Of a stretch of DNA of 64,000 nt, positions 241-566 are shown in pieces (the first letter of the stretch is position 1; each line of letters begins with the position of its first letter). The notes under the pieces were generated by a model. The model worked only from the letters and a program-made list of their open reading frames with translations, was not told the DNA's origin and made no database searches. The stretch is from a virus: the IMG/VR virus record IMGVR_UViG_3300002835_007523, positions 1-64,000 of that record, one strand, 5' to 3'. Position numbers and translations under genes: made by a program.

Positions 241-541
241 TCCATTGACCATGAAGGGAACGGCGTTCCCCCGTGCGTAGCGTGGAATCGAACACCATAG
301 AAGAATGGCAGCCAAGGTAGTCTTGGACACACGGACACCCAGCAGCAATGTTTGTTGCGGCGAGGGTATCGTCACCAGACCTACGCTATGAAAGGCAGGG
401 TTGGCAACCCATTAGAGAGCGGTGGTCTAACCGACCGAGTGCTCCTAGGGTAGCGACCGACCAAATCCGAAGTGTTGAAGGATTAGGGCATGGCTCCGCC
501 ACGCTGGTCGCTTGCGGGCTATTTCATCAACCGCTTGCCAC
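241..541 (-). ncRNA. putative ~300-nt structured RNA or 5' leader ending in a tRNA-like T-loop motif
   Basis: Several GC-rich stems whose mismatches are G-U only on the minus strand; GTTCGATTCC motif near the 3' end; GATAAT -10-like box at 551-546. Confidence 0.5.
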
Positions 542-566
542 TTAGATTATCTCCCCGCCGTCATAC

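Follow-up and report, generated by a model that had tools for sequence, protein, structure and literature searches.

Elements resembling transfer RNA (tRNA) that punctuate messenger RNAs (mRNAs) are a classic feature of organelles and are known for a few long RNAs of eukaryotes, the mascRNA element of MALAT1 being an analogous tRNA-like processing element. Phages T4 (species 1/RNA C and D) and T5 (RNA1 and RNA2) also produce tRNA-like stable RNAs, the function of which has stayed unexplained, and to our knowledge tRNA-like punctuation of phage or bacterial mRNA leaders is hardly documented. Here we describe a leader RNA with a non-canonical tRNA-like module, found at positions 541-226 on the minus strand of a 64,000-nt stretch of viral DNA (hereafter the window, positions 1 to 64,000 of IMG/VR record IMGVR_UViG_3300002835_007523), which makes up the first 64 kb of a 99,093-bp phage genome rated complete. 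This RNA is real, conserved and uncatalogued in Rfam, and it is located in a divergent control region of 556 bp (226-781) between left1, the first leftward gene, and the phage hsp20 gene.

The closest described systems are the t-elements of plant mitochondria, which set mRNA 5' and 3' ends via RNase P and RNase Z (PMC1920247). As in t-elements and mascRNA, the phage RNA has a non-decoding tRNA mimic inside a longer transcript and beside a coding region, with the acceptor/T part and the elbow conserved, and by analogy it may have a role in cleavage. It differs from the t-elements in being the leader of a bacteriophage early operon and in carrying a segment complementary to the Shine-Dalgarno sequence (anti-SD segment; SD for the sequence itself), a separate conserved 5' junction domain and an insertion in the T arm.

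A leader RNA family in three phage lineages

Direct nucleotide searches for relatives gave nothing, and BLAST against GenBank phages was also empty. The terminase, at 77-87% amino-acid identity, led to a large group of related freshwater phages, the contigs of which are metagenome-derived only, and 13 syntenic control regions were taken from them. On the leftward strand all 13 have one to three GGCYACTG boxes, a G-rich box, a structured leader of 211-262 nt and a fast-evolving left1. Among them G027, where 377 nt separate the GGCYACTG box from the left1 start (462 nt in the window phage), contains a true homologue of the leader RNA, and scans with patterns made from the shared blocks added L505 (the locus of the complete 99-kb genome G051), L504 (the same as L546 and L551) and L518. 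L540, from another metagenome, is an identical copy of the window sequence. The family as treated here comprises five distinct sequences (window phage, G027, L505, L518, and L504) of three types from three phage lineages, and nine further clusters of left1 homologues (P0002-P0010), of which P0007-P0010 reach 54-56% identity, stand outside the leader comparison.

The covariance model R1 detects one copy per genome, in two of nine near-complete relatives and in no other collected locus. Eighty loci anchored on hsp20 are not relatives and R1 finds none there, while another 80 anchored on an HslV-like gene (see below) lack the divergent intergenic region. Pattern scans with GGCCACTG..TAGGTC and GGTTGATGA..TAGCC returned mostly chance hits among the matches listed, and the bacterial genomes searched, one per species, gave chance matches only, without the acceptor complement.

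Pairing probabilities were taken from the partition function of the 541-223 transcript, and the comparison was made with the four other distinct homologues and RNAalifold. The five leaders are otherwise unalignable, but share the invariant blocks GAUGA (in a hairpin), CCUGCCUU, GUCUGGUGAC, UGUUCGAUUCCAC, and ACGGG. A first-pass annotation, based on the letters of the window, had proposed a structured RNA at this place with a tRNA-like 3' module. The sequence elements it listed are all present on the minus strand where it had put them, and the five distinct sequences with their covarying helices now document that this strand encodes a conserved, structured RNA some 315 nt long. Folding energy was of little help: z is -2.0 for the leader read on the minus strand and -1.9 for the plus, unremarkable values that do not tell the strands apart, and -2.8 for the tRNA-like unit by itself, so that the case must rest on comparison. 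The minus strand was chosen because of the orientation of the T-loop, the -10 box, the leftward hairpins with U tracts in the relatives and the direction of the gene, and also because of the G-U pairs in hairpin hp1, in arm A, and in helix P1 of L504 (all described below).

Fold of the tRNA-like unit

The tRNA-like unit spans 113 nt (386-274; all features of the leader are on the minus strand) and looks like the "top half" of a tRNA. Its acceptor-like stem is placed directly after UUCCACN and directly before GUCUGGUGAC, and pairs GCGUAG (381-386) with CUACGC (280-275), the latter continuing with a discriminator A (274) and the invariant CGGG, without CCA. Three versions of this stem exist in the family (GCGUAG/CUACGC, GUGCUG/CAGCAC, and GUCUAG/CUAGAC), each with six of six Watson-Crick pairs, and four of the six pairs are changed on both sides. 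When strands of different versions are cross-combined only 3-4 of six pairs are Watson-Crick (3-5 counting G-U), compared to six of six for the matching strands. In alignment A2 all 70 of the 70 cells pair, and sliding the acceptor partner by one to three columns lowers the pairing to 17-60%. The pairing of GCGTAG (386-381) with CTACGC (280-275) had been put forward in the first-pass annotation as acceptor-like, and homologues with compensatory changes are indeed found, both the comparison by homologues and RNAalifold giving a covarying acceptor stem in a tRNA-like 3' module. The trailer A-C-G matches the genuine tRNAs of these phages, which are also CCA-less and end in N73-C-G/U.

Next to the acceptor 5' strand is a mini D arm, GUC-UGGU-GAC, with GG in its loop (371-380), invariant in five of five sequences, recovered by RNAalifold, and with a pairing probability of 0.63. 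The anticodon-arm position is occupied by arm A (GAUACCC...GGGUGUC, 334-370), a helix already seen in the first pass and forming with a probability of about 1.0, although neither its length nor its loop is conserved among the relatives. Candidate loops at this position have 7, 8, and 11 nt in the three closest relatives, and no anticodon arm with a conserved 7-nt loop is present in the five sequences, where the arm varies in length or is missing. Therefore, this RNA cannot decode.

The T arm is more unusual. The T-loop block (281-293) consists of G53-UUCGAUU-C61 followed by CACG; UGUUCGAUUCCAC is invariant in five of five sequences, as are the T-loop GUUCGAUUC and the UGGU of the D arm. CACG (284-281) pairs with a 5' strand located at 328-333, either CGUG (333-330) or UGUG (331-328), with a probability of 0.4; the relatives have UGUG/CACA. 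Between the two strands of the stem there is an insertion (294-326) folded in the window phage as two hairpins, CCAAG/CUUGG (326-312) and GCCAU/AUGGU (309-294), with probabilities of 0.8-0.86, and in the relatives as a single hairpin abutting G53. In tRNA numbering this reads N49-G-U-G52, a 24-35 nt hairpin insertion, and then G53-UUCGAUU-C61-C-A-C-N65, that is, a complete T arm interrupted on its 5' strand, which is an unusual way of presenting a T-loop. The first-pass idea of a T-loop-like block was right in that the block is conserved throughout the family, but the block is not a simple hairpin and is best modelled as a T stem with this insertion; the CCAAG/CTTGG helix of the same annotation (probability 0.8) is part of it.

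RNAalifold independently gives the acceptor stem, GUC-UGGU-GAC, a 4-bp NGUG/CACN helix, and the hairpin abutting the T-loop, and the minimum free energy (MFE) folds of the window sequence, L518 and L504, each computed separately, have the same four-way topology. The T stem shows one compatible change only (U-A in the relatives, U-G or C-G in the window phage). The D hairpin and the T stem rest on thermodynamics and invariance and not on covariation, because almost no changes are seen in them.

On the 3' side the unit ends 30-50 nt upstream of the left1 ribosome-binding site (223-240), with the SD AAGGAGGUGAU at 240-230 and the AUG at 225-223. In between, the hairpin GGGAAC-GCC-GUUCCC (256-270) has a probability of 0.93 and the relatives possess analogous GGG...CCC hairpins at the same position, in agreement with the first pass. 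On the 5' side, the leader of the unit is the anti-SD segment CCUGCCUU (392-399), invariant in five of five sequences and extended to CCUGCCUUUC (390-399). In the full leader of the window phage this segment pairs with GAAAGG-AGG (242-234) with a probability of 0.8-0.9; compared with shuffles, the duplex has a P of 0.09 in the window phage and of 0.02-0.04 in the G027 type. In the fold of the hypothetical processed mRNA the SD is free and the hairpin 270-256 is 5'-terminal.

The 5' domain and the probable promoter

Upstream of the tRNA-like unit the leader folds into a separate domain. Its closing helix, P1, pairs UGGCAA (535-540) with UUGCCA (402-407) with a probability of 0.7-0.9, and is found in four sequence versions at anchored positions, reaching 7-9 bp in the relatives (GAACGGC/GCCGUUC, GAACGCG/CGCGUUC, and AGUGUGGC/GCCACGCU, besides the UGGCAA/UUGCCA of the window phage). 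The closing stem originally proposed, GTGGCA/TGCCAT (541-536 with 310-305), has a probability of about 0.08 and no counterpart in the relatives, and it is P1 that closes the domain instead. Two other helices from the same source, AGCGGT/ACCGCT and GGGTT/AACCC, drop out with probabilities of 0.0, the latter overlapping the P1 3' strand.

Within P1, the hairpin hp1 (517-532) has the form GGUU-GAUGAAAU-AGCC with an invariant GAUGA loop. The whole block is kept in the window phage, G027, L505 and L518, and L504 keeps GAUGA in a hairpin with a different stem sequence. A conserved two-codon open reading frame (AUG AAA UAG) in hp1 was considered and rejected, L504 having a 21-codon frame there. The third element, P2 (453-511), is the GCGACC/GGUCGC helix of the first pass, enclosing hairpins at 488-504 and 464-484, with a probability of 1.0; four sequence versions are known, and in the relatives P2 has 7 bp and sits at the junction. 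P1, hp1 and P2 make a tight three-way junction in the relatives, to which the window phage adds hairpins, one of them GGUC-GGUUA-GACC (424-436), present in its MFE structure and absent from the relatives.

In G027, L505, L518, and L504 the tip of P2 carries a hairpin of -17 to -25 kcal/mol followed by a U7 tract and a conserved UAAAU. The coordinates of this hairpin-U7 element are L441:12353-12403 on the plus strand and L505:4615-4670 and L504:6423-6457 on the minus strand; it was folded for G027, L505 and L504, and called by a terminator scanner in L504. The leader of the window phage has no intrinsic terminator of this kind, whereas the other four family sequences have one.

The RNA forms the 5' leader of the early genes transcribed leftward as an operon, and is probably transcribed from the -10-like hexamer GATAAT at 551-546, with a predicted start near 541-539. 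This promoter and start are supported because the hexamer, also pointed out in the first-pass annotation, is shared upstream of the first helix: all the relatives have -10-like hexamers at the same spot (TAGAAT in three, TACTAT in the other), and a spacer of 6 nt separates the box from the P1 5' strand in four sequences, compared to 1-2 nt in L504. A strict sigma-70 scan does not call GATAAT, the -35-like CGGACA being 15 nt upstream and the allowed spacing 16-18 nt.

Comparison with known RNA families

Rfam 15 at the gathering score gave no match in the whole window. With E values up to 10 there was nothing credible in the region 150-800 besides a ROSE_3-like element upstream of hsp20, no match in two compact homologues, and otherwise sub-threshold noise only (RAGATH-28 with 14 bits, RT-1, MIR162, and Sphinx). 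ARAGORN in default mode found 0 tRNAs and 0 transfer-messenger RNAs (tmRNAs) in the window, and only at an 80% threshold was the G027 unit reported, as a poor "tRNA-Gly" with a one-pair T stem. The first-pass statement that the element matches neither tRNA, tmRNA nor hammerhead is consistent with these empty searches. Candidates resembling tRNA are also mentioned in a 2023 catalogue that comprises 10,006 candidate viral RNAs (PMC10690425), where the present motif may already figure.

Compared with a canonical tRNA (RF00005), the unit shares the covarying acceptor stem, a U8-like position, the GG of the D-loop, GUUCGAUUC with G53-C61, and a discriminator A with a C74-G trailer. It departs from it in a 6-bp acceptor, a 3-bp D stem with a 4-nt loop, the lack of a 7-nt anticodon loop, and the split T stem. 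The tRNA-like domain of tmRNA (RF00023) is similar in combining an acceptor stem, a T-loop, and a reduced D element with UCUGG, with no anticodon arm and a large insertion; the phage leader lacks a tag reading frame, pseudoknots, G3-U70, and an encoded CCA, and its T stem is interrupted. A tmRNA, permuted forms included, was rejected: neither ARAGORN nor Rfam calls one, the acceptor pairs are all Watson-Crick and the trailer is A-CGGG. YrlA and the bacterial Y RNAs also have two parts, a stem with paired ends and a tRNA-like module with T-loop and D-loop mimics. Here, however, the tRNA-like unit lies outside the paired-end domain, on its 3' side, and a Y RNA acting with Ro was rejected, there being no Rfam match and no Ro gene (PF05731 is absent from the window phage and G051, with a positive Deinococcus control). 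As for a hammerhead, it was likewise rejected: of its core only GAUGA is kept, with UU or GC where C3 U4 should precede it, a stem II is missing between the boxes, and Rfam shows no match. The RNAs of T4 and T5 are alike in being phage-encoded and non-decoding, with tRNA-like ends and odd or oversized arms, and in their co-transcription with tRNA genes or proximity to them. They are separate stable RNAs in tRNA clusters, and the one described here is inside an mRNA leader, at 30 nt from a ribosome-binding site. Of the features expected of a t-element, a conserved acceptor/T stack and elbow, a dispensable anticodon region and an embedding in mRNA are found.

The T-loop module is not restricted to the family. 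The motif G-UUC[AG]AN[CU]-C occurs in five of the 13 related leaders, compared to 0.18 expected from shuffles. Besides the units described above, G008 (L258) has a 44-nt acceptor/D-like/T-arm unit at the same position, G006 (L256) a unit in the shape of a Y, in which the T arm is canonical and has 6 bp, and G015 (L383) a minihelix of 12-15 bp capped by UUCAACU. Mimics of the tRNA top half thus recur in the early leaders of these related phages. This suggests that uncultured freshwater phages, probably of actinobacteria, make general use of the tRNA-processing machinery of their hosts.

A possible processing signal at the first early gene

One explanation, which we favour tentatively, is that the leader is a processing signal similar to the t-elements that activates and stabilises the first early message. 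It is favoured because the conserved parts are those that tRNA-processing enzymes read, namely the acceptor/T stack, the D/T elbow and the discriminator. In the proposed mechanism CCUGCCUU(UC) would mask the left1 SD before cleavage. Host RNase P would cut between A387 and G386, and RNase Z or an equivalent 3' tRNA-processing enzyme after A274 or C273, as on the CCA-less tRNAs of the phage. These cuts would free the message from both its 5' domain and its anti-SD segment, and the left1 mRNA would then have CGGG as its 5' end, followed by the hairpin 270-256 as protection and by an accessible ribosome-binding site, so that translation and stability of the early gene would depend on processing at the tRNA mimic. 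With its predicted cut sites (387/386 and 274/273), a removable anti-SD and a remaining hairpin, the locus is a compact case that makes the idea directly testable.

Several observations weigh on the other side. Only three independent lineages are available, and the statistical power is therefore low; the D hairpin never varies and the single T-stem change is one-sided. The anti-SD pairing is missing in L504. Recognition by RNase P and RNase Z is not assured, because the insertion in the non-canonical T arm parts position 52 from position 53 and the acceptor is 6 bp long. That the T-stem sequence and the GAUGA loop never change suggests sequence-specific binding of a factor, which processing does not need, and the hairpin with U7 in the 5' domain of four relatives hints at attenuation or at a separate small RNA and does not follow from processing. 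These three features keep two other explanations alive, an effector or decoy RNA and transcriptional attenuation or antitermination.

Alternative explanations

The alternative that survives best, although we consider it unlikely, is that the leader gives rise to a stable RNA that does not decode, made up of the tRNA-like unit with or without the 5' domain, and that this RNA would occupy or distract a host reader of the tRNA elbow and acceptor. Candidate targets would be an anti-phage tRNA nuclease, the CCA-adding enzyme, EF-Tu or RNase P, and such an RNA would have parallels in the tRNA-like stable RNAs of T4 and T5 or in bacterial YrlA. The T-loop, T-stem, D loop, and discriminator region are invariant in sequence, which fits recognition by a specific factor, the variable anticodon position cannot decode, and the 5' domain has paired ends (P1), like stable small RNAs; moreover, different mimics of the tRNA top half recur in related phages. 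However, the element sits in an mRNA leader right before the ribosome-binding site, with no separate gene and a single copy per genome, and no partner protein is evident, given that there is no Ro/TROVE gene and that left1 has no known fold or family. In a bolder version, to which we give less credit than to this alternative or the next, early leaders of this freshwater phage lineage have repeatedly evolved different tRNA top-half mimics, those of the present family and of G006, G008 and G015, and the excised mimic together with the 5' domain would be an effector that captures or blinds a host elbow-reading factor, its release being coupled to the first early gene. If true, the effector reading would add a new class of phage counter-measure RNA, directed at a tRNA-targeting defence nuclease or at the tRNA maturation machinery.

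Next in plausibility, and also doubtful, comes a leader that controls transcription by attenuation or processive antitermination, in which hp1 would be recognised by a factor of the phage or of the host, or by RNA polymerase, and set read-through into the early operon, with the tRNA-like part as a scaffold or second binding site. The nut and put sites are precedents for leader elements that bind a factor or RNA polymerase. The position of hp1, at most ~10 nt from the predicted start in the four sequences where it is discrete, and its invariant loop would fit such a role, as would the upstream operator-like boxes (GGCCACTG, the CGGACA repeats, and the G-rich box) and the hairpin with U7, which lies 40-60 nt past hp1 in G027, L505, L518, and L504 in three unrelated sequences. 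Yet the leader of the window phage has no terminator-like site and keeps all the conserved blocks, and a control of this type has no need for a covarying acceptor stem or a T-loop. Besides, P1 and P2 join sequences that flank the terminator-like hairpin and therefore can form in the read-through RNA only.

Far less probable is a decaying tRNA gene left in the operon leader, with no function of its own. Genuine tRNAs are found just downstream in the same operon of related phages, the G027 unit passes for a poor "tRNA-Gly" at the 80% ARAGORN threshold, and an interrupted T arm with a degenerate anticodon-arm position is what decay might leave. But 100% identity is kept over blocks of 10 and 13 nt in lineages with unalignable flanks and a neighbouring protein of 32-39% identity, compensatory changes keep the acceptor perfect in three versions, and the linked 5' domain is co-conserved; it is this perfect maintenance of blocks and stems that makes decay so unlikely. 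Finally, a site acting at the DNA level, either an attP carrying the 3' end of a host tRNA (many attP sites carry a T-arm plus acceptor 3' strand) or an origin or operator with inverted repeats resembling RNA stems in this divergent control region rich in repeated boxes, is hardly credible, because the complete 99-kb genome has no PF00589 or PF00239 recombinase (positive controls were detected), the acceptor 5' strand, not needed by attP, is present and covarying, and the one-per-species bacterial genomes give chance matches only and no host match, to which can be added that the G-U pairs make sense on one strand only.

Control region, left1, and neighboring genes

In the genome the rightward genes go from 782 to ~84.3 kb and the leftward ones from 99,093 back to 84.6 kb, the leftward arm running over the contig ends into the window (225-1). 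The 75 N-terminal codons of left1 are at 225-1 on the minus strand, and the remainder is at the opposite contig end (98,812-99,091) in another frame. Since the N- and C-terminal parts sit at opposite ends, the contig must have been cut inside left1, and since they are in different frames, either a few bases are missing or the ends are not exactly circular. The gene would encode roughly 170 amino acids, with full-length homologues of 184 amino acids in G027 and G051 (32-39% protein identity between the window phage and G027), and no known family or fold was found for it in Pfam, PHROGs, or the ESM Atlas.

The GGCYACTG(CC) box is found at 678-687 in the window and at 98659 in the genome of the window phage, both on the minus strand, and points leftward in all 13 regions (e.g., L256, L257, or L379). 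It appears again just past left1 in the window phage and in most of the related regions, and probably serves as an operator or as a promoter element specific to the phage. Repeats of the type ACGGACA/CGGACAAA are present on the minus strand at ~555-600 of the window (three copies, five in G015, and also some in G010), together with a G-rich box upstream of the -10 box that reads AACCCATAGGGGGCA in the window phage and TTAAGGGTGGGGGG in the others. Both look like protein-binding repeats.

The leftward operon contains, at 84.6-92.2 kb of the genome (L082:604-8200, minus strand), a MoxR-type AAA_5 ATPase beside a 663-amino-acid protein with a VWA domain, and the same stretch also encodes a denV-like pyrimidine-dimer glycosylase, a DUF3846 protein and WhiB. 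The WhiB gene suggests that the host of this phage is an actinobacterium. The single tRNA of the window phage is tRNA-Met (94166-94240, minus strand).

On the rightward side, an HslV/proteasome-like peptidase is encoded at 1333-1899 on the plus strand. Its relatives, at 66-70% identity, are found in more than 200 IMG/VR contigs, and the 80 loci examined that are anchored on this gene come from phages of another group that is apparently smaller, their contigs reaching ~40 kb at most. That such close relatives sit in another group of phages suggests that the HslV-like gene has been exchanged between phage groups. The first gene rightward of the control region is hsp20 (782-1219, Pfam HSP20), preceded by a ROSE_3-like RNA thermometer candidate on the plus strand (727-790), with 26.9 bits compared to the gathering score of 43 and an E value of 0.0021. 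In it, UAACUU-G-CUU could pair with the hsp20 SD AAGGAGUUA, leaving a bulged G as in ROSE elements.

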